This document shows positions 1-36,400 of a DNA stretch of 64,000 nucleotides, piece after piece. Source of the stretch: Mayamaea pseudoterrestris (lineage: Eukaryota); assembly GCA_027923505.1 (NCBI GenBank), contig BROI01000007.1, positions 868,001-932,000 of the forward strand. Reading direction: 5' to 3'. Position numbers and translations under genes: made by a program. Below the pieces are notes generated by a model that saw only the letters and a program-made list of their open reading frames with translations, was not told where the DNA came from and searched no databases. Positions within the stretch are counted from its first letter, which is position 1, and every line of letters starts with the position of its first letter.

Positions 1-3000
1 TGGTATCCGTCTGCTGGACTTGCGACTGCGAACCATGATTGCGGCACCGACACTTACAAGCGCAAGCAGTGCTGTCGCTGCTGCAGCACCAATCAATGGA
101 ATGGACGATGACGCTGATGCGCTGTTTTCAGTTTTGTCCCCAGCAATAGACGGCTGCACCTCGAGGCTTTTTGAGACGGTCAAAGTGTTTGTTACGGCAG
201 CATTTCCTGGCGAAGGCATTGCTGAAGTGGATGGCGCGCTTGATACTGAAGGAAACAATGATGGTGACGTAGAAACTGACGGAGCATTTGATATTGAAGG
301 AAATAATGACGGAGGCACAGATATTGATGGAGAATTTGAAATGCTTGGCATAGCACTGATCGACGGAGAACTTGATATTGATGGAGAATTTGAAATGCTT
401 GGCATAGCACTGATCGACGGAGAACTTGATATTGATGGGGACGTTGAGATGCTGGGTTGATTGCTGATCGATGGTGTGAGCGACGGTGCAGCTGAGCTGG
501 TCGGTGATTGCGATACGCTTGGGGCCTGGCTTGGTCTAGCACTTGGGGTGACTGGTTGTTTTGACGGTATTTGAGAAGGTTGCCTTGACGGTTGCCTTGA
601 CGGTTGGTTGATCAGTGATGGTGTGCTAGACGGCTGCCTTGACGGTTGGTTAATATTTGTCGGCTGAGAAGACGGTACTCGAGAAGGTTGCCTTGACGGT
701 ATGTTGATCGCTGTTGGTGTGCTAGAAGGCTGTTTTGAAGGTTGCTGTATGGCCGTTGGCTGAGAAGATGGTACTCGAGATGGCTGCCTTGACGGAATGT
801 TAATCGCTGTTGGTGTGCTAGAAGGCTGCTTTGAAGGTTGCTGTATGGCCGTTGGCTGAGAAGACGGTACTCGAGATGGCTGCCTTGACGGAATGTTAAT
901 CGCTGTTGGTGTGCTAGAAGGCTGCTTTGAAGGTTGCTGTATGGCCGTTGGCTGAGAAGACGGTACTCGAGACGGCTGCCTTGACGGAATGTTAATTGCT
1001 GTTGGTGTGCTAGAAGGCTGCTTTGAAGGTTGCTGTATGGCCGTGGGCTGAGAAGACGGTACTCGAGAAGGTTGCCTTGACGGTTGGTTGATCGCTGTTG
1101 GTGTGCTAGAAGGCTGCTTTGAGGGTTGGTTTATAGCCGTTGGCTGAGAAGACGGTACTCGAGAAGGTTGCCTTGATGGTTGGTTGATCGCTGTTGGTGT
1201 GCTAGAAGGCTGCCTTGAAGGTTGGTTCGAAGCTTCTGGTGGGCTGGATGGCCTTCTTGAGGGCCGCACCGAAGGAATTACGGATGGCCGCAACACAGAG
1301 GTGGGTTGATTTGATTCCGTGCTTGGTGTCTGCGATGGCCGGTTGGAAGCGTTTGGCTGGCTGGATGGCCTTTCTGATGGTCTGACAGAGGGAACAGCGG
1401 ATGGTCTTGAAAAAGTGGTTGGTTGATTTGACTCCGTGCTCGGTGCTGTCGACGGCTGCAATACAGTGGTCGGTTGATTTGATTCCGTGCTTGGTGCCTC
1501 CGACGGCTGGTTGGAAGCATTAATGGTTGTTGGCACGTTTGAGGGTGTCAATGACGGGACTCCAGATGGTCTTGAAACAGTTGTTGGTTGATTTGACTCC
1601 GTGCTCGGTGCTGTCGACGGCTGGTTGGAAGCATTAATGGTTGTTGGCACGTTTGAGGGTGTCAATGACGGGACGCCAGATGGTCGCGCCACTGTGGTAG
1701 GTTGATTTGATTCCGTGCTTGGTGCTTGCGATGGACGAAAAACAGTGGTCGGTAGATTAGACTCTGTGCTTGGTGCCTCCGACGGCCGATTGGAGTTGCT
1801 AGTTGTTGTCGGCCCGTTTGAGGGTTGCACTGAAGGGACCTTTGATGGCTGCAGCACTGTTGTTGGCTGATTGGATTCCGTGCTCGGTGCCTGTGACGGC
1901 CGTAACAAAGCAGTCGGTTGATTCGATTCCGTGCTTGGTCCCACCGACGGTCGATTAGACGGCGGCGACGAAGACTCAATACTTGAGGGCTTCTGACTCG
2001 GGACCGGACTGCTAGTTGGTCCTTCTCTGGTAGGGACAGTAGATGGCTCTACGCTTCTTATGAAAGTAGATGGAGATGCACTGCTCGTGGGGCTGTTAGT
2101 GACTGATGGCGAAGCACTAACAGTCGCCCCCTTGCTCGGCGCCAGGGAAGTTGAGGGCGAGTTCGACTTTGCACCGCTCTTACTGGGAGCTGATGTCAGC
2201 GTCGGTGTCGCACTTCTACCGCTTTTTGTTGGAGAAACGCTTTCTTTTGGTGCCTTCGATGGAGATGCTGAGAGTGTTGGAAACGAGCTCTTTTTCCCAC
2301 GATTTCTGGAAGGCGCAGCGCTAATCGATGGAGCCGAGCTTCGTATTCTTCGTGATGGTGATGCTGAGCTAGAAGGTGATAGACTGTTCATCAACATTGC
2401 CTTATTTTTTGAAGGAGCGGAGGAAATGCTGGGCGACAGACTGCTGGTTGCACCTTTTGAAGGTGATGATGTGGTAGTTGGCGAACTCGATTTCTTGCCA
2501 CCTCTCTTGACTCTGCTTGGAGCGGGCGAAGTTTCTATATTTACTGATGGTTCGACTGATCTTGTTGGTCTCGCTTTGCGTCTTGACGGACTCTTCGTGG
2601 GTGACGCAGTACGCACTGCCGGTTGCAATGGCAGGCGCTTATTCGGAGGCCTCGTCGGTTCCCTCGGTCGATTAAATGTCGTTGGTTGATTCTTTGCCGT
2701 ATTTGGTCGAGGTGGAGCTTTGGGCTGTTTTATGTTTACGTAGCGTATCGGAGCCACCTGTTCGGCAATGCTACACGGGAAGACTGAGAGAATGCCCGAG
2801 GCTGTGAGATTTTTATGTAGCGCAGAAATGGCATCAGATTGTAACAATACTTACGCCTATCATCATCGCAGCGTATGCCACTCTTGGATAATTTAAAACC
2901 TTCTGCTCCTTTACTTTTTGATTTACTGCTCTTTTCACCCTTGACGGACTTTGAACCGATGCCTTGGCGATTGTTAGCGAAGCCTGCCCTGCCAAAGCCA

Positions 3001-3356
3001 AAACCGAAAGTACCGCCCCCTCCAAAGGAATTGCCAGCTGCGCCTGCGTCCTTCAAACTCCCTTTTAACATTTTGCTCTTTTTACTCTCCTTGCTCTTCT
3101 TACTCCCCTTGATCTGCTTTGCGGCCTTGGTACCTGGCACTCTAGTGGATTCGAGGTCAATAAGTTCATGCTCGACCCTGACCTGTGTCAATCTATGCAC
3201 ATCACTTGTATGCTGCGTTATCAGGTGATCCTCAAAATTGCTTTTCGACTCTTGAAAAGGAATGGCGAATGTTTGCTTAACATCTGCAGCGGCGACCAGG
3301 CTAATTGATGTGTGCATGACCAATGCCATGAGAATTGGTGGGATAAGCTTGGTCAT
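1..3356 (-). CDS. Mucin-like P/S/T-rich type-I membrane protein 1 (3' end runs off the window); exons 3356-2855 and 2801-<1
   Basis: Starts MTKLIPPILMALVMHTSISLVAAA (signal peptide), then KGSKKSKESKKSK/KSSKSKSK. A phase-1 intron 2854-2802 (GTAAGT...CAG) joins an open frame of PS/PT repeats ending in IPLIGAAATALALVSVGAAIMV-RSRKSSRR (TM plus basic residues). Exon 2 is absent from the ORF track, probably because its stop lies outside the window. Confidence 0.8.
660..1225. repeat. Coding tandem repeat, 96-bp unit (32 aa, e.g. QPSRVPSSQPTAIQQPSKQPSSTPTAINIPSR), ~6 copies
   Basis: gaagaYggtactcgaga recurs at 668, 764, 860, 956, 1052 and 1148. Confidence 0.9.
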
Positions 3357-3604
3357 TGAGAGGTTGATCGCTCTTGACGAGGGACTCGGTCTAGAGCAGC
3401 GCATCGATACGGTTACTTCTTCAATCTATAGAAACCAGATTTACAGCAGTATTATCGCTATTTTGGCAATTTGTCGAGCATGATCTTGGCCCGTTCATAC
3501 AAGTTGGTCGCGTTTGTTCATGTTTGAGTCTGATAAGAAATTTCAAACGAATACCGGTGCGAGTGTCAGTCACAATTCAATCTTGCTTACTACACGTGAA
3601 GAAA

Positions 3605-4397
3605 CTTCAGTAAGACAACTTTGGCGAGACACCATTATTTAAAACTGGCCGATTAAAAACCCGGTACCGGTACTCAAAATGACATTTTCGACGGTTTTTA
3701 GTTAGGTGCAGATTCTGAAAGACGACTCGTCGGGCTTTCCAACGGTATGCGTAACGTATCTTATATCAAGATATTAGGTCCCGTAGAGAAGGAAAAAGTC
3801 TGAGTACCGGATAGTGTCGCACCCATTCGACGACGGAAACTCGAGGCAAACACCACACAAACAACAATCCAACACCACAGTCTACCCCAACAAACCCAAC
3901 AGAACCACCTCATGCCATTGATAACTTCATAACTCATGATACTTCATTGCAGAATGAGCTTAATCGGTGTGAATTGATTGCTCTACGCCTTGAAAGCACG
4001 ACCCCAGGCGAACTCTACTATTTCTCGCCTCCGTCGGTTTCGCTGTCTGGGCTGAATGATTTGACAAGCCAGCTACATGTTTCCGAAGATAGAAGCGGCA
4101 ATGTTGGAGGTATGAACGCGGCTGTGGTCACAGATCAGCGGCTGACCTGGAGCAGGCTTGCCGATGCCAACCCAAACTGGTACCTGGGTGGACCTCTCCA
4201 TTGGCCACAAGACTAATTTAAAGCCACATTATACTAATTAATACATTAATTAGACGTATGGTGTGGTATCAGGTGCTTTATGAGGCTTTAAGTTGTGTTT
4301 TATGATGGGTCCACTGGCGCAAACTTCAAACGCCTTTTTCTCGAAACGACTTTTTAACCTCATCCTTCAGTTAGACAACTTTGGCGAGATACCATTA
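3605..4397. mobile_element. Putative transposon remnant bounded by a 33-bp direct repeat
   Basis: cttcagtWagacaactttggcgagaYaccatta at 3605-3637 and 4365-4397 (2 mismatches); no convincing gene in between. Confidence 0.35.
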
Positions 4398-4708
4398 ATG
4401 TTGACGACAAGGAGAATGATCAGTGAGTGGATCCCGCTTATCGTGAAGAAAGAGGCGCAGCGCTAGCCCATCGTGCTGTTCAGTAACAAAGAATTTGCCC
4501 CCTGTCCATCGTGTAATCGTATGGAAATAAGCAAGCAAGCAAGTAAGCAAGCAATACTTTTAAGAATGAGATGCATGCATGAAAAAAATTCTATACCGAC
4601 ATTAATTATCCTGGAAAGAGTTCTTGCTCTATGTATTTTCTTAATCTCACTTCTCATATGAATCGGCAGATAGACCCAACACTTGTAGAGCATTAGGTGT
4701 ACCAATAA

Positions 4709-6994
4709 TTAGTAGTCCCTCAAAAGCCACGGATCGTCGTCGCTGTGCGGCACCCAAGAATGCATATCATCTTCGGCATTATCATCATCAACATTTTCCT
4801 CCTCTGGCGCCAAGGCAAACGGACTATCAAACAGTGAAGAACTGTCATCTGCTGTGGCGATACAAAACTCGATTTCGTCTTCGTATACACTTTCGCTTGG
4901 TTGCGTCGAACTATCTGACGTTGGCACTTTCCTCTGGTGCCGTTTCCGTAATTTCTTTTCTTCTACCGTCATTCTTTGATTCCATCGCGTAAGGGCGATC
5001 GCAGTCCCGAGCAAAAAGACCGACGCAGCGGCCGATGCTGCTATGAAGGCAACCGGAATCGTTTGCACGCTTTCCTTGCTGCTTGAGACGATAGTTGGCG
5101 CTCCTGATGGTACATTATCGGTAGAATAGACGATATCCGTGGCTGAAGAGATTAGAAACACAAAAAAAGCACATGAGAACGTTCAACCTCGTTTTGCTTT
5201 CATCGTGTAACAATTTTATACGTACTGGTTGATAGCGGATTGTCACTTGGAAGCGATGCTAACTGTGTAAGCAATTCAGAAACTTGCGGGGGCGAAAGCG
5301 CTGTTTGAATCAATGTATCAACGTCTACTTGTGTCGGCATGACTTCTTCCGCACCGGTAAACGACGCGCTTGGATCATAACCAACATCAGTTGTACCAGC
5401 TCCCGGTGAGCTACCAGTTGGTGTCGCCACAAAATCCGTTAGACTCACCAGCGGACTTAGCGCAAACGTATCGTTAAAGTAACTTTCCAGGTAGCTATTA
5501 AGAATGGTAGACGCTGCGGCAACATCGTCTTCGGACGGAGTTGCCGATGAACTCGTAGTGAACTCAATCGCAAAGGGTGTGCCGGAGACACTACCGGCCG
5601 ACGTGGGTGCTCTCGACAAAGCAGGACCGACTGATATCATTGACAATGATGGCGCTGTAGTAGTTTCGGTAGAAGCAACTGTTGGGAGCCCCGTGCCACC
5701 AGCGGAAGGCACTGCCGTCGGACTAGATCCAACTGACGATGAACTTGAAGGAACAGCAGATTCGGCGCCAGTCGACGGTCTAGTTGTGTCAACACTGAAC
5801 GATGGACCGGCAGTAAGCGTGCTTGGTCCTGGCGTCAATGACGCAATCGTCGGAAATGCAATTGCAGTGGGCGAAAGCGACACTGTTGGAAAGACAACCG
5901 CAGGTGCTGAGGGAGTTGGACCAAGCGAAACTGACGCAGACGTTGGCGTAGACGTGATAGTTGGAAACGCAATCGTAGTGGGCGACGGCGAGACGGTTGG
6001 TAATTCTACCACAGGAGCTGCAAAAGTTGGGGTGACTGTAGCTGTTGATGGCGCTTCTACTGTCGTCGGCCGGCTAGTGGTGCTTATACCAGTTGGCACA
6101 ATCGTGGAAGGTGTAGATGGTTGCGTTGCAGAAGGTGAAGGAGCAACTGTTGCTTCCGCAGCGCTGGTCGGCGTTGGCGCGCCCGTATTGCCTCCAAATG
6201 TTGGGATACTTGTGGCAGGCATTACCGTTGGAGCACTCGTTGCCGCTGGTAACAACGTCGTAGTCGCAGCTGGAGCCAATGTGGGACTAGTCGTTGTCGC
6301 TGCTGCGGGTGTTGGAGTGCTCGTCGACACTGGAACCATTGATGGAACACTCGTTGTTGCTGGAACCGATGGTATTTGCGTGGGAACAACAGAAGTTCCT
6401 TTTGGAGTAGGCGTTGGTCGCGGAAAGAGAGTATTCAGTTCTGGAGCAGTCGTTGGAGCCGCGACTGGTGCTTCTGCTGCCGTCGGTGATTGACCAATCG
6501 GCACTTTGACGCAAGGGTCTAATAGTAAAGTGATGAATTCGGATAGTGAGGAATAAGTCGCGGGCAACACCAAATAAAAGCCGTCTTTAAGCATACTTAC
6601 GTGGATGAATAATATAGTGATTCTTGTAAGCCTTGCTGCCATGGCTTGTTGGCAGTGGATACGGCCCTGGATAAGCCTTGCCGTAGGGAGGAGGCGGTGG
6701 CAACCCTTTTGAAAATCCTTTGGATCCCTTGATACCCTTCTTTGATCCCTTCAGGTTCCGTCGATCGCCAAAGTAACTCTTTTCCGACCCACTTTCTTGC
6801 GGACAGACTATGATCCAATCGACTCCATACATTTCAAACGGCGAACTTGCTGTTGCAGTTTCGTGTTGCGCCATTTGAACAGAGTGATGACTACTCCTCA
6901 ACCGCTGATGAAGCCGTTCGGTTTGGACCGATATCAACGACTCGGCGGCAGAGCAAAGCAGGCCTAATAGCATGACATGTCGAAAAGATGACAT
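4709..6994 (-). CDS. Mucin-like P/T/S-rich type-I membrane protein 2; exons 6994-6601, 6518-5226, 5142-4709
   Basis: Signal peptide MSSFRHVMLLGLLCSAAES, then RRNL-KGSKKGIKGSKGFSKG, a PT-rich stalk, an ~120-aa domain ending LPSDNPLS, TM IPVAFIAASAAASVFLLGTAIAL and an acidic tail. Two GT-AG introns join the three ORFs in frame. Confidence 0.85.
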
Positions 6995-7647
6995 TTTTCT
7001 GTTGCGCTACTCTTGCTTGATGTTTTTGAGCTTGTCTACTTTTCGTGTTTATAGCAAGATAGCTTGGCTCAAGCTGCTAAATGCCAAAGTAAGCAGGTGA
7101 ATTAACGAGTAGATTGCCGAGTAACACCTTGTTTTCTTTCTCTCTCATCTACCCAAGGAAGGGGATGCACGGATCAAGGAAGCATGACGAGACGAAACAT
7201 TTGGCGAGAAATTTGATTTCGACAAATTGTCGGCTATGGCCAAAATTGATGAGCGAATGCGTCACACGTTGATTCCGAGTGATCTTAGTTCCTTTCCTTG
7301 GCATTTATAATTATCATTTCAAGCATTGCAAGTCTCCGCTTTTTATAGGCATGCCTCTTGTAGACATTGTTGTATGTATTAAAGAGAATGGGAAGTACAT
7401 CTTGAAGGAATCAGTGGTCGCCCTTTTTTGTCGAATCGTCGTCGCCAAAGTAAGTCTTTGGTTGTCGCACAGTCATTATATCACCGCTACGACATCAAGC
7501 ACGATTCCTTTTCTCGTCGCTCGCTGAAGCTGTCGAGATTGATGCGAACTTGCATCATCATATCATAACGTATTGAGACAAACGACCAACATAAAAGATA
7601 ATGAGTGTTAATATACAAATGGTGGATATGTCGCGGAGCTGGATGTT

Positions 7648-10600
7648 CTATCTCAGTGAATCCATAAACGGAGAATGAAAGAGTGGATCGTCCAAATGAT
7701 CATTCCTTCGCCGCGGGATGGAATGGAACTCAATCTCCATGTCGTCAAAGCTTGCATGGTCAGCGGACCAAACTGTTATATTTCTCATTAATCGCTCCGA
7801 TCCTGTCAGATAGCCTTCTCTGATTCCTCCATAATCAGAGCCGGAGACGTGCGTTGCCTCCTGCCAATCATCGGAAAAATCCTTGGCTGTCCGCCTCTCT
7901 CGCAGCCGCAATTGCAATCGTTTCCTACGACTCGACATTGCTGCACCAACCAGTAGAACAACAAAACTAGCACCAACGGCAACTCCAATGCCCGCTCCCG
8001 CGGCTGCAATGGTACTAAAGGCATTCAATGAGCTTGCACCGTCGACTGCTTGAGCGGACGCTTGGTCATTGGACGCGTACGTTGCGTCGGTGACTTGCGA
8101 AAATGGATTGTTTGAAGGAAGCTGCTGCAAGTCAAGCAGCAGCGTTTCGACATTTTCAGGAGCAAATGCTCTACTTATGAACGAATCGAGCTGCTCCTGG
8201 CTTGGAACAAAGGACGAGTCGGGAGAAAAGGTCACATTCACATCGTAACCCAATGTCGCTGGATCAGTAGAGTTTGTCGGGCTCGTCCACTGAAAGTCAT
8301 CAATTGTTGCTCCTTCAAAACCTATCAACGATGAATAATTTGTAAGCGTAGGAAACATAGAATGAGTTTTGCATTGGCGCAAGTCGCCTACTTACCCAGC
8401 GAGAGCCTCAGCCAATCTTCCAAGTGGGTCATCGTCAAATTTGCGGCATTGTTAATTTGCTCATCAGACAAGTCACCTTGGACTCCTTCATACGTGATAT
8501 CAAAAGGCGCCTGAAATGAATAACATCGAAATGCGTGGTTAGAATCATCCGCATACGCCAAACTAGCTGCATTGCCAATATAACTTACTGGTTGGGTTTC
8601 GACAGATGCTGTTGGCACAGCGGCGCTTGGCACAAGCGTTGCTATAGATGTAGGAGCTGGCACAGCTGTCGGCCCTACAATTGTCGGCAGTGTCGTTCCG
8701 GCTGTAGGGCTGAGTGCGCTGGGTACAAGCGTCTCCAAAGATGTTGGTCCTGGTAGAATGGTTGGAGTTTCAACCGTCGGCGACGTCGTTCCCGATGTAG
8801 GACCGAGGGCGGATGGTACATTCGTGACGGCTGCGGATGGAGCAGGTAAGGCAGTTGGAGACAATACGCTCGGTTCGCCTGCTGCCGGCGCTACTGTCGG
8901 CTGAGCTGCGCTTGTTGGAGATGTGACGCTTGGTGCAACAGCCACGGTCGGTTCCGGAGGTATGGTCGGAACTTGCACTGCCGGGGATAATGTCGGCGTC
9001 AATGCATTTGCACTTGGCAAGGATGTGACTCCGGCAGCGATGGGAGACTGAGTCGGCGCACCTGCAACCACAGGCTGTCCGGTCAGACTTGGCGCCATCG
9101 TCGACCCAGCAGCCGGGCTTATTGTTGGAGCTGCAACCGTGTTCAAGGAAGGCGCCGACGTGTCTATCGCTGCCGTCGGACCTGGAACGATAGTTGGGGT
9201 CAAGACGCTTGGCTCACCGGCGCTTGGGGTTGATGTTGGCTCGCTGGCTGTAGTAGGAGCTGTCACAGTTGGTGCGGGTGCTACAGTGGGAGTCTCAATA
9301 GTGGGTGCAATGGCACTTGGTTGTATTGTGGCGCCAGCGCTTGGCTGACTTGCCGCCGAAGTCGGTGTCGAAGTCGCTCCAGCAACCGGAGCTGTAGTAG
9401 GTTGTATTCCACCACTGGACGACGGAACTTCTGTCCCTGAGCTCGTGGTTGGCACTTCCAAGGAAGGTACGCTTGTGACTGCAGTCGGCGTCGTTACAAT
9501 AGTCGGTTGAGAGGCTGGCAGAATCGTAGGGGTAGTAGCAACTGCACTTGGCACTAAAGTAGCACCTGCAACTGGCAATGTTGTTGGTCCACTTGCAACC
9601 GTTGGCAAGGATGTAGCTCCGGCAGCGGTTGGACCTGATGCTGGCGCAATTGTTGGGGCAACAACTGCAGACGGCACTTGTGTTGCACCTGCAACTGGAG
9701 ATTCAGTCGGTCCGCTAGCTGCCGTAGTAGGTCCCACTGTACTTCCAGCGATTGGTGATACTGTAGGCTGCGCGCCCGCACTGGACGACGGAGCAGTCGT
9801 TGCACCCGCAATCGGCGCAGACGTCGGACCAGCGCTGACTTCCCCCGCTACTGGACTTGCGGAGGGTTGAGTCGTTTCGCTTGTTGGTGCAGACGCTGGG
9901 CTGGTGGTGCCTGTCGTGGCACTGCTGGGAGCTACAGTGGCTGTTGGACCTTCCGGGACGGTTGGCGTAAGCCCGCTGGATGGGGCTCCTGTTGTTGTCG
10001 CTACTGGACTAGCAGTCGCAGCTCCACCAGTACTTGGAGCGGTAGTTGATGCTGGCACTGTCGGAGCAAGTCCTGTCGACGGAGCTTCAGTTGCCGCCGA
10101 CACAGGACTTGTCGTTGCAGCTCCTCCAGCATTCGGTACAGAAGTCGCTCCTCCAGTGCTTGGCGCTGTAGTCACAGGACTCGCTGGAACAGTTGGGGCA
10201 CTAGCTCGGGTAGGCGCTTGACTGGATGAAGCACTGGTAGGCATGGATGCTTGCGGACTCTTCGATGCAGCCACAACGGATGGTGACTGGCTCGGCACTA
10301 TGGTCGCGACGAAACATCCTTTTGACGCTTTTGAACCTTTCACTCCTTTCGATCCCTTGAAGTCCTTCGATGACTTTGACGACTTTTCATCGCTGCAGTA
10401 TGTTGGAGCGGTCGTTATCGTTGGAGCAGACGTCGGCAATGGTGACTGGCTAGGCATGGGACTTGACGTTGGACTTTCGAAGCATGAATCTTTGGATGCA
10501 GACCCTTTTCCGTGGCAGTGATCGCCTTTGCTTTTCTTCTTTTTTCGCGACTTCTTACTCTTACCTTTCTTGCCACTCTTTCCCGACTTTGCATCCTTGC

Positions 10601-10889
10601 CCGACGGTAGATTGCTGCCCTTCGATTTTCTGTTGCCAGTAAATGTGTCTAAGAGTCCTTTTGAGTAGCTCGGCGCTGGTGATGAGACGGGTGCTCTCGA
10701 GGCTGGTGCTGTGGTCACGTTCTGCGGTGGCGTGATGGGCGCGGGAGCAAATGTTGTGGTCTGCAAATTACGATGTGCCTTACTGTCGGCTGAATTTGTG
10801 GTGTGCCTGAGTGAGACTGCGGAAGATCCCTGCAGCAGCGCCGAGCTTACAAGCAGAATCAGCGCTGTCTTCACCCTCGATTTTCGCAT
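7648..10889 (-). CDS. Mucin-like P/T/S/A-rich type-I membrane protein 3; exons 10889-8589, 8510-8396, 8321-7648
   Basis: Signal peptide MRKSRVKTALILLVSSALLQGSSA, then HRNL, KSGKSGKKGKSKKS and KSSKSSKDFKGSKGVKGSKASK, a long PT stalk, a domain ending LPSNNPFS and TM AGAGIGVAVGASFVVLLVGAAM-SSRRKR; GT-AG introns keep the frame. Confidence 0.85.
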
Positions 10890-11454
10890 TGTTGCGTTTT
10901 GTAAAAAGCAAACGGTGAATATACTATCGTTCCCTACACAAGGCTCCGCCATTTTGCAGTTCAATAACAAGGAGGTTCGAGACAAAGATGGATGGGTGCT
11001 CGTTTGGTGGCTCGATGCGCACTGGACGCTGACCAAAGGTGCTCCACAAAATTTGCATCCAACGGGTCGCAAGGTGCACCTCGATTCGATACACAAAAGT
11101 GACATTGTTGCTTCTACGACATTACATATTACTATCCACTACTAGTATCATGGATCCTGAAATTAACAGTATCTTACTCTTAAACACAATGCGCTACCTT
11201 GATCATGCCGCGGGATCAAGTTTGAAAGACTCTTGGGCAAAGGGCAGAAGCCAGAAGCAGCAAGCGCGATGTGATCGTGCGAAATAATCGAAAACAGCTG
11301 GCTCGCCTTGCTCGCTGATGATGTCTGATCGGTTTCCTTTCAAAAGTCTGCGTCGACCATGGGGAATTCGTTTCATCTCGTTATCAAAAAGCATCAAGTT
11401 TGGCTCATCTCTTGACGACAGATACCATTTTTTCATTTGTGTTGTTTATTTTAA

Positions 11455-12494: not shown

Positions 12495-14509
12495 CTATTG
12501 AATGGATCGCTTTCGCCGCCATTTGCCTTCCACGACGTTGCACCACCATGCCTTCGGCAAGTCTGCCATTTGAACATCTTCATCCATTCGTCTACCCACT
12601 AGCCGCTCATAAACATCGTCAGATACCATGGTCCGTATCTGAGACAGTACAAGACTGCCGACTTGCCCATCTTTGACACACTTTCTGAATAGAACTTCAG
12701 TGACCTTTTGTCGCGTGCTGCAGTCAGGTAAGTGCGAACATAGCCGAAGAAAGGTTCCATATGTAACCTGATCGGGTTTCGCATATAGTGTTTCTTCCAT
12801 TTCTTTTAAAGTATTATGCGCAATCTCCAAAGCTCGCCCCTGCTCAATAACATCGTCCGAGGTGAACGCGCAAGCATTCATGACCGCGTTGTATGCGATA
12901 ACATTTGGCCGCACATGCTTATTGCCGGCCTCATACAGACGCGTCATCTCTCGAAGTAGATTGTAAGCTCGTTCGGCTTTTCGAGGTTGCTGACTTCGGG
13001 CCCATGCTATAAAGACATCAAATGAGTTACACCAATTTCACAACAGAGGACATTGCACATCATACGGCACATGTAGCGATACGTACCATTGATAACGCTA
13101 CAAAAACTGTGAACATCCGGTCGAACCTCTTCATTGCCTTGCACGTGGAGTTTTTCCATCAAATCAAGTATGTCCTGCGCCTTCGTTGCTGCCTCGTCCT
13201 CTCTGCTCTTAGCCCATGCATTAATGACGCTATTGAAGGATCTGAAAACGCAAAATTGAAGTCAATGAGCACCCTAAACACTCAAAAAGGCAACTATTCA
13301 CGGCATCTAAATTTACCTTGCATTTGGTCGCAAATGTTGTGCTCCAGCCTCATACAAGTCTTCCATGTGCCGCAACACGGCCTCTGCTTTGCTTGCGGCC
13401 CCTTCGTCACCAGACTTTGCAAATGCGTCAATCACGGCGTTATAACTCACAACCGTGGGCTTTGCCTGCACATTTCCGTTCGCGTAGGCAGCCTCCATGC
13501 GATCCAAAACTTGCTCCGCCCGGAGTGCCGATCCAGCGTCACCGGCGTTCGCCCATGCACTAATTAATGCGTTGTAATTCCAAGCGTTGGGTGCTTCCAC
13601 CGGAGTCTTTCCTGGAGTTTTGCTAAACTGATCAGACAAATCTTGAAGCTGATCAAATATGGCTTGAGCCTTGTAGGCTTGTCCAGCCTTGCCACATGCG
13701 ATAATGGCAGCGTTCCACGCTCGACTCGTAGGATGAATATCTGCCTGTCCTTCCTTGTAATACAAGACAATTTCGTCGCAAAGATCCTGAGCTCGCTGAG
13801 CCGATTCCTTTGTACCCGTATGCGCGTGCGCCTCCAAGACGGCAGTGTAGCTGTATGTATTGGGGCGGATCTCCTGGTCTCGGACACCCAACGTTTTCAT
13901 TTTGGCCAAAACGTCGTCAGCTTGCTTCCCTGCAGACTCGGTCGGCGATCGAGCAATTACATTGATAAATTTAGTATATGATCTGACATCCAGCAAAATA
14001 TTTGGCAAGGACTCCATTGCGTCAAGTAGTTTGGATGCCTGCTCGACGGAATCTTTTTGCTGCGAAAAGGCCCACGCATCCATGAGGTAATGAAAGGTTC
14101 GTTTGAGTTTCCTCTTGCCTTGAGACGCGGGATCTGTTTCATTAGACGTTGCACTATGTTCCAAAAGTGACGCAGTCTGTTTTCGCAGCACCGCAACATC
14201 GCCAAAGGCAGGATTCTTGAGTCTCGGGCGAGGCGGCGGTTGAGGCATCAGTTTGAGTTTCCCATTCCGAAGAGGTGCATCATTTTCATTCAAAGTTGAT
14301 GACAGTCCCGTTCCGCTAGTTCCAGGCGAGTTATCTAATACTGTCAGAAATAAGCGTTGCGAGGCTTGCTCCAGTGTCGGCGCCATTGGCGGCTCGGCTT
14401 GATCTGCCAACCGAATGGATCGTCGTTCCTGTTTGCCCGACGGAAGATACGCCGTCGACGTCGGCAGCGACGACAATAAGAGACCAAGCAAGAGCGATCT
14501 TTGGGCCAT
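12495..14509 (-). CDS. Pentatricopeptide-repeat (PPR) protein, organelle-targeted; exons 14509-13317, 13241-13087, 13006-12495
   Basis: Multiple PPR motifs (PNTYSYTAVLEAHA, PTVVSYNAVIDAFAKSG, PNVIAYNAVMNACA); signal peptide ending STA-Y. Confidence 0.9.
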
Positions 14510-14859
14510 GATTATCACAGCTATTTCGAAAGTCGTTATGCAGAATGTCCAGCCGCTTTTCCCTGATGGTTGGTCTCGTGGCCATCACGAGATGCTGCTG
14601 ATGGCAGAAGGTTCTGTTCAGCGGATGCTCTCCTCTCGTGCGACCTCCCTCCGACTGACGTTCACCCGAGACCGATGCGACATGATGACGTTTTCGTTCA
14701 ACTTCTTTGTGCTTTTCGAACCATTCGATGCGCAGCTTCCACTTGCAACTGTTGAACTGCTGCACTTGTTCCAACCTCTTACACTATATTACACATGCTA
14801 ATTAATAGTAAGGAGCATATCATACAAGTTTGTCGACTGGAGATGATTGATAATTAGCA

Positions 14860-15577: not shown

Positions 15578-16024
15578 TTACATTTCATCAACATCTCGCA
15601 CATGCACCCCCATACTCTTGGCAGTCCCCACCACAGACCTAGCAATACCTTCCAATGGCAAGTGCCATCTCATATCATCCTGCTGCTTGATTTTGGCAAT
15701 TTCGTAGACGGCTTCCGGAGATATAAATGCGACTGGCTTTTCGGGAGAATTGTTAGACGGCCCCTTGTCCATCCCAACGACTCGTTTAATGAGATAGGAT
15801 GTTGGTGGACTTCGAATGTCAAACGTAAAACTTCGGTCGCTCAAGGCGGTCAACTGTACGGTCAACGGAACGTCCTTTTCGAAGCGAGTTTCGGAACGTT
15901 CGTTGAATTGTCGGCAAAAGTCGGCCATGTTAATACCCAAAGGACCGAGTGCTTGACCAATGGCAGGACCTGGCTTGGCAGTGCCAGCAGGAACGCGGAG
16001 TTTCACGTGACGGACAAAGGACAT
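15578..16024 (-). CDS. MRPL11: Ribosomal protein uL11, bacterial type (likely mitochondrial)
   Basis: VKLRVPAGTAKPGPAIGQALGPLGINMADFC...SPPTSYLIK...VGTAKSMG. Confidence 0.93.
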   Translation of the reverse strand: MSFVRHVKLRVPAGTAKPGPAIGQALGPLGINMADFCRQFNERSETRFEKDVPLTVQLTALSDRSFTFDIRSPPTSYLIKRVVGMDKGPSNNSPEKPVAFISPEAVYEIAKIKQQDDMRWHLPLEGIARSVVGTAKSMGVHVRDVDEM

Positions 16025-16434
16025 GATGATAATGGTGTAGGGTTATCAAGAGCAAGGAACAAGTAGTAGTGCGCGATCAGTCATGGCGAAGCGATCGGAT
16101 TGCTTGGTTCGACCATGATGTCGCACCGGTTGAAGGAGTACCGGACGACATGATCGAGCTCATGACCGCACCTCACCCGCGGCCTCAGATTCGTCGCACC
16201 AATCACCGCTTGCCTTTCGAGGACAACAGAGATCCAATATACGCAATATACACGTCGAAGCATTTGCTGTAGCAATAATTTGACGAAGTTATTTGCAGGC
16301 TTTGACAAGAATAGTTTTTGCGAAATTTGGAGCTCAAAATCCTTGATCCATCGCTTAGTAAACGACGCTGACGATCGACTCGAGCATTTCCCTTCGCACC
16401 TGTTTCACATTCTTCCAAACAATCTTTTGCAACC

Positions 16435-17814
16435 ATGGGAGGAGCGCAAGACACTGCGGAGGAACTGGACCAGCAGATTGAAATCTTCAAGGTCAAGAAA
16501 CTCATGAAAAATCTCGAAGCCGCCCGCGGCAATGGCACCTCCATGATTTCCCTCATTATTCCACCCGGCGACCAAATCAGCCGCGTTTCGAAAATGCTGT
16601 CCGACGAGTACGGCACCGCCTCCAACATCAAGTCGCGCGTCAATCGACTCTCCGTGCTGAGTGCCATTACATCGACGCAGCAGCGACTGAAACTGTACAA
16701 CAAGTGTCCGCCCAATGGACTTGTCATTTACTGCGGCACTGTTATTACCGAAGACGGCAAGGAGCGCAAGGTTAACATTGACTTTGAACCATTTCGGGCG
16801 ATTAATACGTCGCTGTACTTGTGCGATAACAAGTTTCATACGGAGGATTTGCAGGAGTTGCTCATGGATGATGAAGCTTTTGGGTTTATCATTATGGATG
16901 GTAATGGCTGCTTGTACGGAACTGTGCAAGGAAGCAGTCGAGAAATTTTGCACAAGTTTAGTGTCGATTTGCCCAAGAAGCACGGTCGCGGTGGACAGTC
17001 TGCCCTTCGTTTTGCGCGGTTGCGTTTGGAGAAGCGACACAATTACGTGCGCAAGGTGGCGGAACTTGCGACGCAGCTCTTTGTGACGGATGGGCAACGG
17101 CCAAATGTGCAAGGCTTGGTACTGGCTGGTTCTGCTGACTTCAAGTCGGAGCTTATGCGGAGTGACTTGTTTGACCAGCGTCTTGTCAAGATTGTCGTCA
17201 AAATGGTGGATGTTTCGTATGGTGGCGAGCAAGGGTTTAATCAAGCGATCGAAATGTCTGCTGATGCCTTGAGCAATGTCAAACTCATGAAAGAAAAGAA
17301 GTTATTACAACGCTTCATGGAGGAAATATCGCAAGACACGGGTCGATACTGCTTCATGGTGCAGGATACGCTCAAGGCACTGGACCTTGGAGCTGTCGAA
17401 GACTTGATTGTCTGGGACAACTTGGAGACTAATCGATTTGTACTACGAAACCAGTCGTCTGGAATTGAAAAGGTGGTGCACTTGAATAAGGAAGAGGAGC
17501 AGAATCAAGATCATTTTCGCGACACTGATGGCGCCGAGCTAGAGACAATTGAGAAGGAACCATTGGTCGAGTGGATGGCCAACAATTACAAGTCCTTTGG
17601 TTGCAATCTGGAGTTTGTGACTGATCGATCTGGCGAAGGGACACAGTTTGTCAAGGGCTTTGGCGGCATTGGAGGTATTCTTCGATGGAAGGTTGACTTT
17701 GTAGAAATGCAGCAATTTGACGAGGCGGATCAACTTGGCGATGACAGCGACGATGATGAAAACAAGCAAGACTCGGATGGCTATGATTTCGATGATGGTG
17801 ACTATGGATTTTAA
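16435..17814 (+). CDS. eRF1: Eukaryotic peptide chain release factor subunit 1
   Basis: GTSMISL, TASNIKS, YLCDNKF and GRGGQS motifs; intronless, 459 aa. Confidence 0.98.
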
Positions 17815-30431: not shown

Positions 30432-33011
30432 CTAGGCAGCATTGACTCTGACTCGATAGAGGCAAGCATACTCCGCTCCCCAATTCGAGTCAATCGCAAG
30501 TGCAACTGACTGCAGCTCCGGGACTGGCCGCTCCCCAACCACTCGAGCTACTTCAAACTCTTGCCGAATTGCGCCAGTGATGGTATATTCAAACGTGCCC
30601 AACTCCCAAGGTTCACTACTCGCTGCATCGTCCTCAAAGCCAAGTAAACGAAAGGAACGAATCGCAGTATTGACGCGATCAGTCACTTCCTTCGGTGGGT
30701 GCTCGATTGAAACCGAATACACTGTGGTAGGCTTTGCAAGCTTGAACGAGAGGACTCCGTACTCGCTTGCTACTCCAGCATGCTGCTGGAACGACCAACA
30801 CTGGCCAAGAGCTGCAAAAGGAACGACAGGAGTCAACGCCATTTCAGGTCCATGTCCATAGAAACGTAAACCAAGGACGTCAGCCATTCGGTTCAAAAGG
30901 GGTAAGTCGTCTTTGAGCGAAAGTGTAGTCGCCCATTTTCCACTACGTATGACACTGGCCCCATTTAGAATTGACGCATAGTCAACCTTGCCCGTCTGAT
31001 CGGCTCGCTCCAACTCTAGTCGACTCCTGATCAACCCGGCAAACGTATCAATGGTCTGCTTTTCTGCCGGTTTGGGTACCATAGCCATTCCTTCGGAAAA
31101 CACTTGCGCCTCTTCCTCCAAGTTCTCCTGCACCCAACTGTGAATTTCTTTTGAAAATTCGTCCGACATGACTCCAACAACTGATGTATCTGCCTCCCTT
31201 CTCAACGTTTCCACCAAACTGTCAAACTGCTTCACGTCAAACTCGGGCAATATACTCTTGGTCTCGTTGCAGCTAATTGTCGTGTCTGGAACGACCCATG
31301 AGTCGATGAACGACACGTCGACCAAGAATTGGTCGACGCCATCTAACGAATTCAGCTGCTCTCTCAATGCATCCATCTCTTCCCTGCCTAACAAAAGATT
31401 GGGCTCGTTCAAGTTCTCTTGTAAAATTGAATGAGTCTTTGTGACACTTCCCGCGGCTTGTTGGAAACGCGTCTGCCGCTGAGCGACCACCTCATTTAAA
31501 ACGCGGTTTAGTTCATTCGTTCTGCCAGCCAACGTCAAAAGCTCCTCCTTGGCGGCTTCAACATTTTTCTGCAACGAAACGATTGCTTCAAGCTTACTGA
31601 CAGTCTGCTGAGCATGAATGGGATCGAACTGCATGGGCGACATCCACGCCGCAACCGCCTGGCACTGCGTCAAGGCTGCGTCGGACAGGCCAATCATGGA
31701 CGAATAAATGGGCGGAAACGCAAAGCTTGCACTCGCGGCCGCCACCAAGAGCCACAGAGCCAGCCAAAAAGGAACATAGTGTGGCGCGCGTCGGTACCAC
31801 GTCTCCTTGGAAACAAGTTGTTGCTGCTGCTGCAAATTGTCACCAGCTTGCCGCGCCTCCGCTGGCATCGAGGTCGTGTCAACAACGCTCTCCGTCTCCA
31901 TGACATCGGTAAAGCTGGTAAAGGTTGTTTGAAGGTCAATGTTTCTCGAATTCGTCCTCGTATGTCGGGCTCGAAAGGCGACTGCCCTCGACTCTTGCTG
32001 CACCACCAAATGTGAATTCATCGAGGCGGCAGCAGCGCCGCCTGTATCATTCAATCCCAACAAAACATCCAAACCAGAAGCGCGTGCAGCTGGTTTGCGC
32101 GCCAGTGGATGATCATTGGCTCCATTGTCGTTATTATTATTATCCGTCTCCATGACATCGGCAAAGCTAGTAAAGGTTGTATCCAAGTCAATGTTTCTGG
32201 AATTGGTGCGCGAGTGTTTGGCTCGAAAGGCAATCGCATGCTGAATGGCCAAGGGTGGATCCGACGCGGCCACGCCATGCTCATGATTGTGCTGCGCCAA
32301 CAAATTGTCCAAACCAGCGGCTCGCGCATGGCGGGGTTGCGAGACTGGAATGTTAATGGTTGCGGAGCCTTGCTCGCTTGCGCCGCCGCCTCCGTAGTTT
32401 AGTTGCAGACTTGGTCCTCGTGGCATTTCATTGTTACTTGTCATGCCCAGAGTCGATTCATCATTCTGATATGACCGAATCGGGACCGTCCCCTTGCTGG
32501 CCTTTCCTGGCGTCTGATTGACTGGCAGACGAATGTTATCAACGGCAACGGGAACCGATCGAGCTGGAGGCTCGGCGTTCTGCACGTGAATCGTCGCACC
32601 TTCCGCCGCCATGGCATCGGGCATTCCAAAGTTTCTGTCCTCGTGAAAATGAACGTGGTTTGTCTCGAAGTTAATGACGGCTGGCAATTTGGAATCCTGC
32701 TCCTCCTCCTCGTGCTCTTCAGTAATTGTATCAATCGCAGTATCAATCGCGGCAGCAGCAGCAGCTCCCTTTTTGGCGCGCGAGCGCTTGGGCGTGCGAC
32801 TACCTCTAGAGCCTTGCGAGGACGCGACACTATCATCATCCGTCTTGCGCTTGCGCGTTGATCGCCTTGCGGGAGGTTGCTTGTCTTCCTCCTCCTGGAG
32901 GACGCTAACATCGTCGCCCGCTGACTTGTTGCGGGCGGAGATGCGCCGGCTCTTGCGCGTCGGAGTGTCAACGCTCAATTGATCCGTATCGTCGTCCATT
33001 GGAGGAGCCAT
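30432..33011 (-). CDS. SUN-domain nuclear envelope protein
   Basis: Basic N-terminus, TM, coiled coil, then C-terminal DYASILNGASVI...GQCWSF...SIEHP...SNWGAEYACLYRVRV. Confidence 0.92.
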   Translation of the reverse strand: MAPPMDDDTDQLSVDTPTRKSRRISARNKSAGDDVSVLQEEEDKQPPARRSTRKRKTDDDSVASSQGSRGSRTPKRSRAKKGAAAAAAIDTAIDTITEEHEEEEQDSKLPAVINFETNHVHFHEDRNFGMPDAMAAEGATIHVQNAEPPARSVPVAVDNIRLPVNQTPGKASKGTVPIRSYQNDESTLGMTSNNEMPRGPSLQLNYGGGGASEQGSATINIPVSQPRHARAAGLDNLLAQHNHEHGVAASDPPLAIQHAIAFRAKHSRTNSRNIDLDTTFTSFADVMETDNNNNDNGANDHPLARKPAARASGLDVLLGLNDTGGAAAASMNSHLVVQQESRAVAFRARHTRTNSRNIDLQTTFTSFTDVMETESVVDTTSMPAEARQAGDNLQQQQQLVSKETWYRRAPHYVPFWLALWLLVAAASASFAFPPIYSSMIGLSDAALTQCQAVAAWMSPMQFDPIHAQQTVSKLEAIVSLQKNVEAAKEELLTLAGRTNELNRVLNEVVAQRQTRFQQAAGSVTKTHSILQENLNEPNLLLGREEMDALREQLNSLDGVDQFLVDVSFIDSWVVPDTTISCNETKSILPEFDVKQFDSLVETLRREADTSVVGVMSDEFSKEIHSWVQENLEEEAQVFSEGMAMVPKPAEKQTIDTFAGLIRSRLELERADQTGKVDYASILNGASVIRSGKWATTLSLKDDLPLLNRMADVLGLRFYGHGPEMALTPVVPFAALGQCWSFQQHAGVASEYGVLSFKLAKPTTVYSVSIEHPPKEVTDRVNTAIRSFRLLGFEDDAASSEPWELGTFEYTITGAIRQEFEVARVVGERPVPELQSVALAIDSNWGAEYACLYRVRVNAA

Positions 33012-33487
33012 GGCGAAAATAAAAAAAGATTACTATCTTGCAACTAAATAGTAGAGTTTACAGATACAAAAAATAGAACAAGCAAATCGCGAGTTGGATC
33101 AACGAATCCTCATGGCGCGGCGTGGCAAGTATGGCAGACGCACGTGAGAATTGTGTGTCACTACGACATGTAGCGGTACTCACTTTCAACCCGGAAGCGG
33201 AGAGCCTGTCGGCACCTTGATTACCAAACGGTCCCGCGTGAGTCGGGCATAACAAGCTCAAAGATACCTTTTGGCAGCGTGGGAGGAGCGATCAGCAAGA
33301 GCCGTGTGCTCCTCGCGGAAATGGTTGCCGCACTCGCCCATTGGCCAAGCAAGCTCTAGCCTGGACACTCGGTGAGATTATTTTCGACCGATAGCTCGTC
33401 TTGATTTCTTCGTTCCGTACCTTGACACGTAGTAAAACAGCGACGCATATTAGATTTGGTGAATCGCTTCACGAGGCAACAATCAAC

Positions 33488-36400
33488 ATGAAGGTGCCAG
33501 CTGCCGCTCCCTCGGCATTGCTGCTGCTGCTATTGACAAGAGGCAGTGACGCCAAGCTTGCAGATCGATCGCGCGTCGTTCAGCGTCGACTGGAAACGGG
33601 GCAAATTACTCGATTCTCCGACAATGGCAAGGCTATCGAAGGTCCAAGCTATCGATCAAGTTTCTACGAGGAGATTGAACCAGTGATGGCGCAGCAGCGG
33701 TCCAATCAGGCAAGGCCAGCAGCGGTTGCCAAGGAGGCTCCCTGGAAAATGCAGCAGCAGGAAGAGTACAATGGCATTGACACTGATCACCGAAGACTCT
33801 CGAGTCAATTGTCTGGTTGCTGCTACGACTATCAGAGCTACAGTGCATCTGATCTGTGCTACATTTACGGCAATGATTGCGAATCTGGCTCAACGCCTTC
33901 GCATGACTCTGGTGACGATGATTGCTCGCAGGATGGTCTTTCGTTTATTGGAATTAGCTTTAGCGTCAATACAGCGAGTGGAAATCCATATAGCTATCAG
34001 CTGTGTGACCAGTTTCCCATGGAGAATATCATTGATCGTGACTACAAGTACGTCATGAGCATGGACGAGGATGGATGGCTTGTTGGCGGCGGGTACAAGA
34101 CATTTGATTACTCTGGAAAAATGCCGTAAGTCGCTTTGGAGCCATTGTAAAGGAGTTTTGCCTTGCCGGAGGCTAGCGCTGACCTCTTTCATTCCTTTCA
34201 TTGCAGGTACATTGACTCGTCGCATACGGAATTGCTTCGCATTGGAAACATGGACCCTGACAAGGGAGGAACTTCAATTGACGCCGTGTACAGTGCTATG
34301 AGTAATATTGACTTTGCTCCTTTTTCCATCTTTCCCGAATATTTAAAGGGAGGCGGCAAGCATCATTCAAACGATGACAGTAGCAGCGGCGTTCCGGCGT
34401 CGGACATTACTTTGATTGTGTCTGTCGTTGAGACTTACGACGATGATTCGTCGTATTCCGTTTACGACAAGTTTGTCAATAGCATTTTCAACGCCATGTA
34501 CAATGCCGGAGGCGGTCCATGCATGGACGATCACGATACGGATCCTCATGTGTCCATGGCGCGCGGCGTCAAGTTTTGGAGCTCCTACCATCACTCGCAA
34601 TACACGTATGCTGCCAACCTAGAGGTTGCCGTCTGGCAAGCCATGTATCCAAAGGGTGTTCCGATTGGTTCGGCTGGCTATGCGGCCTTTCCGCCCGGTC
34701 GCGGAGGAACAAAGCAAAAGGTTGGCTACGGCAATTTGTACTTTTTCTTTGACCGAGCAAACATTACCAAGGCTTTTGCTCCGTATCGGTCATTGACCAG
34801 CTCGGAGGAATATTATGCGACGCTTTACTCGTCAACCGACACTAGCTCCTATTACTCGTCAACGACGTCAATTTCCTTCAACTATGCCGGCTCTGGCGAC
34901 AATAACAATAATAACTGGGAGTGGAACCCTTACTCGTGGAACCAAAAGTCGGCCAAGCACGACATGACGGACGGATGGGAGCTACCTCCCAATTGTTTGC
35001 AGGAAGGCGAAACCTTTTTTGGCATTCCGCTGTCGCAGACAAGTAGCTCCAAACTGCAAAGTTCAACAACGTTTCAAGAGCAATTTGATTTCGAGTATTT
35101 GGTTGACCGCAATGGAACATATATCCAGTCGTTTGGAACGAATCATGGCTGGTTGATCGGAGAGGAACTTGACAATGCGATTGGAGCAATTGTCGACAAG
35201 GACACTGCCCATATTCCGCTCTTTTATGTTGGAACGACAAATCCGGACATGGTACGTTTTATAGTGGATAGCGAAGCAACGAGAAAGTGAGCCGCAATTT
35301 CATATTCTCACGTTCGTCTATTATTTCAGGGGGGCATGTCGCTAGCAAACATTATCAAAGTTGCGAAGAAGCTGGACTTTGGTACGCTGTACATTAAGCC
35401 TGCATTCGTGTTTGTTGACAGCGACGGTCACGTGAAGCTGCAGTTTGAGGTCGATTCTACTTCGGCACTGGCGTATCTATACGACAATTTATGCAAAGAG
35501 CTTGGCATTACCTGGAACTACGACTCACCTTATAATGATGTTGGTGTATATACGAACTGCGCCATGCACGCGGCTGGTGATCGTGCCAAGTATGGTTGCG
35601 GCCCGGATGGAACAGGCAGCGGAGGATTTTGCCCGCAAATGACGCTTGCCTACTCACCACGTTTCTCCAGTGAAGACAATGCAGCTGCCTACCTAAGTCG
35701 ATGCAACAGCTATGTTGATTACTGGCGCTCATTGTATCCGTCTGGAGTTGCTGTAGGTTCGAGCAAGTTTTGTCCGCAAGGTGGATGTTTGGGACTCTTT
35801 TTAAATCGGTTCGATCTGTATGAGGTTTTCAAACCTGACCTTGCGGGAGCGTGGGTGGAATACAATGGTGCTTCAATGCCTCCAACCTACTCTCCCGCTC
35901 CAACTTGGAAGGGAGGATGTGATGATCCGCACAATTTCTTCCTCGACAAATGTGTGCGAAAGCGTTACAAGCCCAAGCCTTCAGCTGTTGCGTGGGACGC
36001 ACTTGGTACTGTCGGCCAGATCTCTGTCATGCTCGTTATATTCATGGCAGTAACGCTGTCTGTTTCAATATTTTTGGCACGCGCTCGCAAAAAGAGAAAG
36101 CGGGGCGAAAGCTATCTTGGTTTCTTCTTCCGTGACCTTACTCGTAAACGCAAGAAGAAGCGTAGAAAGGGCGTCGATGGCTTGGAGGAAAGCATGCTTC
36201 CCGAGTCCTCAAGCCGACGGTCAAAGTCTAGCGGACGTCGGTCGACGCGCTCTACATCGGGTCGGTCAAAGAGTGCCAGCAAGCGAAGCAAGTCTGCTTC
36301 TCGACCCGGCAGTCGATCTCGTTCAAGATCGAGCTCGATGCAGCCAGTTTCAGTACAGCCGCCATCGCGATCGAAAGATCGCCATCGCTCATCTGGCGCT

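Follow-up and report, generated by a model that had tools for sequence, protein, structure and literature searches.

The silaffins of diatoms are soluble. Two type I proteins of the silica deposition vesicle (SDV), Sin1 and SAP3, carry an RXL site and are described, in the accessible parts of the two reports, as losing their membrane anchors (PMC5525289, PMC5647440). KXXK proteins with Pro/Thr (PT) repeats are silicon-responsive in T. pseudonana, according to the available text of a third report (PMC5501833). How, then, might instructions pass out of the cytoplasm and enter the SDV? In what is available of one account, patterning signals from dAnk and the cytoskeleton reach the SDV by way of transmembrane receptors that are described there as unidentified (PMC9894196). 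Here we describe, from a window of 64,000 nucleotides (nt) of Mayamaea pseudoterrestris (G000:C7:868001-932000; positions below are those of the window), an array of genes whose products belong to a large, unannotated family of diatom proteins, apparently undescribed so far, that resemble membrane mucins and combine an SEA-like domain with silaffin-like heads. We favour, tentatively and somewhat short of calling it probable, the reading that these proteins are type I membrane tethers, targeted to silica, in the SDV membrane or at the frustule interface.

The array and its splicing

Are these real genes, or an artefact of low-complexity reading frames? The initial annotation of this stretch had reported three co-oriented genes, and these stand: on the minus strand, at positions 1-10889, genes 1 to 3 have GT-AG introns of 71-83 nt, and models spliced by script give three uninterrupted proteins (table 1). 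The cluster is larger than was reported, however. It holds five co-oriented genes, genes 4 and 5 adjoining the window start on its outer side. The public protein P0001, labelled a hypothetical protein of M. pseudoterrestris, is identical to the gene 2 model, an agreement with annotation and not with experiment. The last exon of gene 3 is 57-61% identical to P0007 and P0009.

The evidence for splicing comes from contigs of three public runs, X1, X2 and X3, all from one study. No run labelled as RNA is listed for this stretch. The record of X3 bears no RNA label either, and exact GT-AG skips in its contigs are taken as splicing with that caveat. Two such skips, both with intron-type ends, omit exactly 2784-2854 (71 nt, the gene 1 intron) and 5143-5225 (83 nt, the second intron of gene 2), while a loose contig end at 6601 looks, as judged by eye, like the start of gene 2 exon 2. 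Two of the five introns in the window are bridged in this way and a third is suggested. The initial annotation had staked its reading on transcripts that join the Lys-rich head to the stalk; for gene 1, the X3 contig across 2784-2854 does join them. The same intron is retained unspliced in X1 and X2 contigs. Neither intron of gene 3 is bridged by any contig of X1-X3, the X3 depth there being 0-0.5. A joint at 8514-8583 in X1 was not counted as an intron, having non-canonical ends and short support. We conclude, from the spliced contigs and from the conserved domain described below, that genes 1 to 3 are real genes and not a low-complexity artefact.

Over positions 1-11000 the three runs differ from the window by numerous substitutions and by several indels of 3 or 6 nt that keep the frame, which indicates another allele or strain.

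How old is the array? The domains of genes 2 to 5 are 19-39% identical to one another, and in a FastTree tree of 285 domains each of the four groups with relatives from other samples. The array is therefore old, and a recent tandem duplication is rejected. An independent metagenome contig, L033, holds two family genes in tandem. In a metagenome scan for relatives of gene 3, none of 578 candidates was confirmed.

The interval between genes 1 and 2 contains a 33-nt direct repeat (3605-3637 and 4365-4397, 94% identical). Its core 10-mer recurs at 7200-7209, about 205 nt upstream of gene 2. All three matches in the window lie here, against 0.23 expected for a motif that was chosen after it had been seen; the 10-mer was not found upstream of genes 3, 4 or 5 or of the other paralogues.

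A folded juxtamembrane domain

The initial annotation gave the three proteins one architecture. Its signal peptide, Lys cluster, Pro/Thr/Ser (PTS) stalk and transmembrane (TM) segment are all there, but the defining feature of the family, a folded juxtamembrane domain, went unnoticed. This domain, of about 125 amino acids (aa), lies between stalk and TM, some 24 residues ahead of the membrane, and is common to genes 2, 3, 4 and 5. Gene 1 stands apart, giving no match to the domain profile even at E 10. The genome has at least eight domain-bearing loci: the four in the array and others on contigs C2, C3, C15 and C24. Two weak matches on C5 were dropped, having fallen on open reading frames (ORFs; one inspected) that we take to be methyltransferase-like.

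A profile built from six copies matches 670 clusters (50% identity) at E <=0.001 and 339 at 1e-10. Most of the family escaped protein searches by word index. No Pfam family came near its cut-off for 14 segments or for 70 aligned members. The homologue statistics given here and below refer to 153 proteins, drawn from the best 150 of the 670 profile matches and from the Mayamaea genome itself, which supplies four. Of these proteins, 120 continue for 60 residues or more past the last domain, and 112 of the 120 have a TM there, a median of 24 aa after the domain. Homologues keep the plan of signal peptide, RXL, Lys cluster, PTS stalk, domain, TM and basic stop, often with a tail motif. Two to four copies of the domain occur in 48 of the 153. 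One of these proteins, P0015 (1255 aa), has a separate Lys cluster and stalk in front of each of its two copies, as might come of a fusion of two array genes or of read-through. The family was not found in the literature searched, which lay outside subscription papers and preprint supplements; both the family and its juxtamembrane domain appear undescribed.

What fold does the domain adopt? The AlphaFold2 model of the gene 5 domain, built with 70 sequences, has a mean predicted local distance difference test score (pLDDT) of 95.9 and a predicted template modelling score of 0.88. Its order is beta-alpha-beta-beta-alpha-alpha-(short alpha)-beta, a ferredoxin-like arrangement. Foldseek gave nothing at E 0.001, the best match having E 0.012. 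A wide structural search gave PCDH15 MAD12 (Z 8.1, root-mean-square deviation (rmsd) 3.0, 100 aligned), with SorCS2 (Z 7.7), GPR126 (Z 7.4) and MUC16 SEA5 (Z 6.5) among further matches, as well as Nup54, TMPRSS6 and IA-2. In a second structural look the juxtamembrane domains of PCDH15, ACE2 or IA-2 filled 10 of the top 14 rows (Z 7.0-8.1). However, unrelated ferredoxin folds tie with these, namely a peptidase dimerisation domain (Z 8.1, rmsd 3.9) and PheRS (Z 7.5), and the search tool itself warns that a Z near 8 can reflect a mere common arrangement. The ESM Atlas twice gave a weak SEA lead, with scores of 0.81 and 0.76 that lie below the 0.9 mark. The SEA family PF01390 was not among the best 25 of the 28 families found for the 70 members at E 0.1, and no PDB sequence matched the domain. 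Since the Z scores tie with unrelated folds and the Atlas lead is weak, we describe the domain as ferredoxin-like, and as SEA-like in its fold and position only; the homology to the SEA family that the model might suggest is unproven.

In SEA domains of the MUC1 type, autoproteolysis occurs at a GSVVV motif in the turn between beta2 and beta3. This motif is absent from the domain alignment, in which 49 of 69 sequences have Pro just before beta3 and no Ser is conserved. In the accessible parts of the literature, SEA-like domains act as proteolytic switches in receptors, and that of Notch, also without the autoproteolysis motif, is cut by other proteases (PMC6586460).

A PTS stalk above an SEA-like domain, a TM and a short tail is also the plan of MUC1 and MUC16, and the SEA domain of MUC16, a protein with multiple copies of it, is among the matches above. 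Might the array then encode a general glycocalyx, or a tether of protoplast to frustule, like the membrane mucins of animals and with no part in patterning? Such proteins would stand all over the cell, bind finished silica or wall polysaccharide electrostatically, and sense wall stress or be shed. The repeated domain copies among the homologues fit this proposal, as do heads and stalks that diverge fast while the domain is kept, at the identities given above for the array. On the other hand, a glycocalyx has no need of the RXL, penta-lysine and SMS motifs of silica-routed proteins, and we regard the proposal as unlikely, though deserving of real weight.

A second proposal also touches the fold. 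The predicted fold of the mating protein MRP1 from P. multistriata is reported to be SEA-like (10.64898/2026.03.25.714164), and tandem arrays with divergent heads would suit cell-recognition or mating-surface receptors in which the diversified heads were determinants of specificity. Yet the order of strands and helices reported for MRP1, in the available part of that source, differs from that of the array domain; the heads are low-complexity Lys/Ser tracts and not folded binding domains; and genes 1 and 2 appear spliced in X3 contigs, with no record of sexual conditions. We consider this role very improbable.

The heads

Genes 1 to 3 each begin with a hydrophobic N-terminal stretch, read as a signal peptide from its hydrophobicity. 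Genes 2 and 3 were said to have RNL before the Lys cluster, and both do have RNL (at aa 79 in gene 2). It directly precedes KGSK in gene 2; in gene 3 it lies some 48 residues ahead of the cluster. The penta-lysine pattern, a published silica-targeting pattern present in 29% of silica-associated proteins against 1.5% of background, occurs once in gene 1 and twice in gene 3. The pattern is not found in genes 2 or 4, gene 2 having two KGSK seven residues apart.

In genes 2 and 4 the RXL site and the Lys cluster lie between a pair of cysteines, and the two heads have in common the element W-x-x-x-C-x-P...RRxLKGSKK...PPPP. The lumenal cysteines of genes 1 to 3 number two to four, all in the head. 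A single-sequence fold of full-length P0001, the gene 2 protein, has low confidence (mean pLDDT 40) and is uninformative as a whole; it has short strands at 60-63 and 135-138.

Are such heads general in the family? We compared 52 long homologues, those with at least 150 residues upstream of the domain, with 50 local long ORFs, a crude background that includes non-coding frames and is unmatched for signal peptides. Penta-lysine occurs in 12 of the homologues and two of the ORFs, K[GS][GS]K in 24 and none, and at least five Lys within 14 residues in 40 and nine. The short paralogues P0003, P0006, P0081 and L033 have SMS-type heads, matching motif classes of silica-extracted proteins. Searches of the Mayamaea genome (G000) with the heads of genes 1 and 2 matched, in each case, only the query itself.

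Stalk, membrane segment and tail

The stalks of genes 1 to 3 span 303-861 aa and are 51-55% P/T/S. At 3.5 Å per residue they would measure at most about 105-300 nm when fully extended, while several family members have almost no stalk. Each of the three proteins has one TM-like segment with basic residues after it, which bears out the stop-transfer segment of the initial annotation, although in gene 2 this run sets in only about 12 residues further on. The predicted topology, type I with a PTS stalk that bears a polycationic head, is supported as first proposed and is conserved in the homologues.

The tail of gene 1 after the TM is 41 aa. Tails of 50 aa or longer number 105, of which 104 start with two or more basic residues. 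LFxxPF or DPLF is present in 23 of the 105, against a shuffled mean of 0.16 and a maximum of two in 200 shuffles; it is usually preceded by an EIEF-like element and sits 55-100 aa after the TM. The conserved motif lends indirect support to the link to the cytoplasm that had been suggested.

What might the proteins do?

Head motifs of silica-routed proteins, the stalk and domain of a membrane mucin, and a conserved tail motif meet in one family, and a silica tether is the simplest joint reading of the three. How would it work? The protein would enter the endoplasmic reticulum with its N-terminus lumenal or extracellular, as its hydrophobicity and basic stop-transfer stretch suggest. As in silaffins and Sin1, the propeptide would be cut at RXL. 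Because a Cys pair flanks RXL and Lys cluster in genes 2 and 4, a disulfide could hold the cut propeptide on. The Lys/Ser head is probably methylated, polyamine-modified and phosphorylated, again as in silaffins, and so modified would target the protein to forming silica and bind there. The PTS stalk, presumably O-glycosylated, would serve as a spacer of up to the length given above. The ferredoxin-like domain would be a folded pedestal and possibly, by analogy with the SEA-like domains of animal receptors, a site of regulated shedding. An acidic tail with EIEF...DPLFxxPF may bind a cytosolic trafficking or cytoskeletal adaptor. The SDV membrane, or later the plasma membrane, would be pinned to silica at distances specific to each paralogue. 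The genes, part of their splicing, the architecture, the modelled domain and the conservation of the motifs are what the data show; processing, modification, silica binding and location are what we infer here.

Several points weigh against the silica tether. Gene 1 has no RxL within its first 200 aa, and gene 2 is without penta-lysine. The tail motif is confined to the 23 tails mentioned, those of genes 1, 4 and 5 being without it. RXL is not specific, for RRL occurs also in an unrelated predicted single-pass gene at 33395-36502. K..K motifs, as far as the available account goes, show no more than a three-fold enrichment in silica proteomes and are frequent in the background. Stalks of hundreds of residues would seem long for the thin lumen of an SDV. 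No Thalassiosirales label occurs among the few named matches, and four of the five organism labels are raphid pennate, which would fit a role in the raphe equally well.

The labels in question are Mayamaea, Cylindrotheca fusiformis, Nitzschia sp., N. inconspicua and Attheya septentrionalis, organism names being present for just three of 30 clusters looked up. We take Mayamaea, Cylindrotheca and both Nitzschia to be raphid pennates and Attheya to be a non-raphid diatom. Identity between the Attheya protein and one Nitzschia member reaches 69%, and the tree sets the former, with weak support, among sequences of Nitzschia type; being so close to them, it may be contamination, or else a real non-raphid member. 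A scan of prokaryote genomes with the patterns of one subfamily confirmed none of 14 candidates, which is weak evidence.

Could the family instead serve gliding? As adhesins of the raphe plasma membrane the proteins would supply the adhesion-motility complex with its transmembrane link. Their cationic head would hold anionic mucilage strands or the substrate, the stalk would reach into the raphe, the SEA-like domain would bear load and shed the ectodomain, and the tail would couple to raphid myosins or an adaptor. The predominance of raphid labels agrees with this. A place is vacant as well, the transmembrane protein that couples gliding being stated to be unidentified in the accessible text of 10.1101/2023.03.27.533254 (scheme in PMC13056149). 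Known trail proteins are PTS-rich, those with CAA being unanchored in the part of the source available, and receptors that are mechanically loaded or shed, PCDH15 MAD12 for one, stand among the top matches to the modelled fold. Against it stand the Attheya homologue, if that is no contaminant, and the stalks, whose greatest length of 105-300 nm compares with a raphe thickness of 300-500 nm given for C. australis in the available part of PMC11420354, a thickness that depends on species. The nearly stalkless members fit no better. The word 'lysine' does not occur in the available text of the trail-proteome preprint (10.1101/2023.03.06.531300), and Lys heads are no described feature of trails there. 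Many divergent paralogues are also unlike what one would expect of a single motor coupler. We hold a role as raphe adhesins to be doubtful.

A fuller version combines the two functions in a raphid coupler: a membrane mucin whose SEA-like pedestal would bear load and could be shed, and which would either have converged on protocadherin-15 and dystroglycan or share their ancestry. Its head would grip silica or strands, and its tail would bind actomyosin or dAnk. This too is rather unlikely; if it were true, one protein design would serve both the building of the raphe and gliding.

What follows from such a plan? The family is a candidate for the missing transmembrane link from the cytoplasm to the silica wall or to the gliding slime. 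It has the anatomy needed both for an SDV receptor and for a link from raphe myosin to strand. Because domain and tail motif can be aligned, unlike the low-complexity silaffin-like proteins, orthologues should be findable in transformable diatoms.

Table 1. Genes of the array and the features predicted in their products (window positions unless stated otherwise).
Feature	Position	Strand	Details
Gene 5	L009 2172-5070 (G000:C7, just past window start)		895 aa, one of several possible splice choices
Gene 4	L009 5693-8703 (G000:C7, just past window start)		952 aa; first intron modelled with GC donor
Gene 1	1..3356, end 95 nt past window start	minus	exons 3356-2855, 2783-outside; 1126 aa
Gene 1 Lys-rich head	2889..3128	minus	penta-lysine cluster aa 77-98
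Gene 1 stalk			861 aa, repetitive PTS; 96-nt and 165-nt tandem repeats
Gene 1 TM, then basic stop-transfer stretch	31..99	minus	
Gene 2	4709..6994	minus	exons 6994-6601, 6518-5226, 5142-4709; 706 aa
Gene 2 RNL site, then two KGSK	6710..6760	minus	between Cys64 and Cys134
Gene 2 PTS stalk	5587..6495	minus	303 aa, 55% P/T/S
Gene 2 SEA-like domain	5122..5586 (end approximate)	minus	aa 443-569; last strand in exon 3; fold from paralogue model
Gene 2 TM	4991..5062	minus	
Gene 2 cytosolic EIEF...LFxxPF motif	4817..4876	minus	
Gene 3	7648..10889	minus	exons 10889-8589, 8510-8396, 8321-7648; 1029 aa
Gene 3 head	10320..10772	minus	RNL aa 40; two penta-lysine clusters, the second between Cys165 and Cys192
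Gene 3 PTS stalk	8589..10307	minus	about 574 aa, 51% P/T/S
Gene 3 SEA-like domain	8071..8510 (end approximate)	minus	over exons 2 and 3; profile E 3.9e-35
Gene 3 TM, then basic run	7933..8004	minus	
Gene 3 cytosolic EIEF...DPLFxxPF motif	7666..7737	minus	

Neighbouring genes

The RRL-bearing gene at 33395-36502 lies on the plus strand and encodes, in three ORFs, a predicted secreted single-pass protein that has RRL at two sites, a TM-like segment and a tail both basic and rich in Ser/Arg; by eye it is unrelated to the array. Elsewhere in the genome, about 2.5 kb from the paralogue on C24, L012 3-1703 (minus) is a co-oriented gene with signal peptide, RRL and TM, together with a Cys-containing, folded-looking segment and a Gly/Asp/Lys-rich spacer. 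An ORF at 61272-62399 (plus) has repeated poly-Lys tracts of the KEKKKKKK type between acidic spacers and no evident signal peptide. A multi-exon gene with helical repeats at 12495-14584 (minus) presumably resembles diatom PPR-like proteins. Ordinary-looking neighbours occupy 16372-17814 (plus), 15578-16042 (minus) and 30432-33029 (minus); we take them to be eRF1-like, ribosomal L11-like and a SUN-domain-like membrane protein, respectively.

Comparison with known systems

How does the family compare with proteins already described? The trail proteins CaTrailins, Ca5609 and CaFAP1 resemble it in their long PTS-rich regions, expected to be O-glycosylated, yet in the accessible text they carry CAA, GDPH, Cys-rich or vWA domains (10.1101/2023.03.06.531300). 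Neither CAA (PF20597) nor vWD was found in the Pfam scan of 14 segments, in which no search was aimed at GDPH.

SAP1-3, the silicalemma-associated proteins, are alike in having a signal peptide, RXL, a Ser-rich lumenal part, one TM and a conserved cytosolic segment (PMC5647440). As described in what is available of that report, they have no KXXK, their Ser-rich parts measure 16-51 aa, and a conserved segment of 28 aa directly follows the TM. The array family differs in its Lys clusters, stalks of 300-860 aa, folded lumenal domain and distal tail motif. Silicanin-1 and SiMat7-like proteins are likewise type I membrane proteins with RXL after the signal peptide (PMC5525289, PMC5501833). From the available descriptions, Sin1 is little glycosylated, ends in a tail of 20 aa and has a lumenal domain that is NQ-rich (Asn/Gln-rich) and Cys-rich (18 Cys); the array proteins have no such NQ-rich or conserved-Cys domain, and a PTS stalk takes its place.

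With silaffins the array proteins have in common a signal peptide, RXL, KxxK and penta-lysine clusters, and PT repeats. Silaffins, however, are described in the accessible literature as random coil with at most one Cys, in contrast to the TM, folded domain and Cys pairs found here. TpSSP20, by its available description, has a K..K cluster, SMSM and one TM, and is located in valves (10.1101/2021.09.18.460806); short members of our family share this mix of motifs. In the same part of that source no folded juxtamembrane domain is described for TpSSP20, which was compared by description only. A single TM is predicted there for 18 of 92 silica-extracted proteins. Since TpSSP20 has a TM and is in valves, an anchored Lys-rich silica protein is not new in itself, and the novelty first implied, a protein silaffin-like but anchored, was overstated.

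The type I plan itself is that of animal SEA and SEA-like receptors (MUC1/MUC16, PCDH15 MAD12, IA-2, the ACE2 neck, GPR126, SorCS2), in which a mucin-type stalk stands above a juxtamembrane ferredoxin-like alpha/beta domain, with Z of 6.5-8.1 to the modelled array domain. Identity to these animal domains is 5-11%, there is no match to PF01390 and no GSVVV, and any common ancestry is putative. The family would extend the membrane mucin plan of animals, a stalk with an SEA-like domain, to the stramenopiles.

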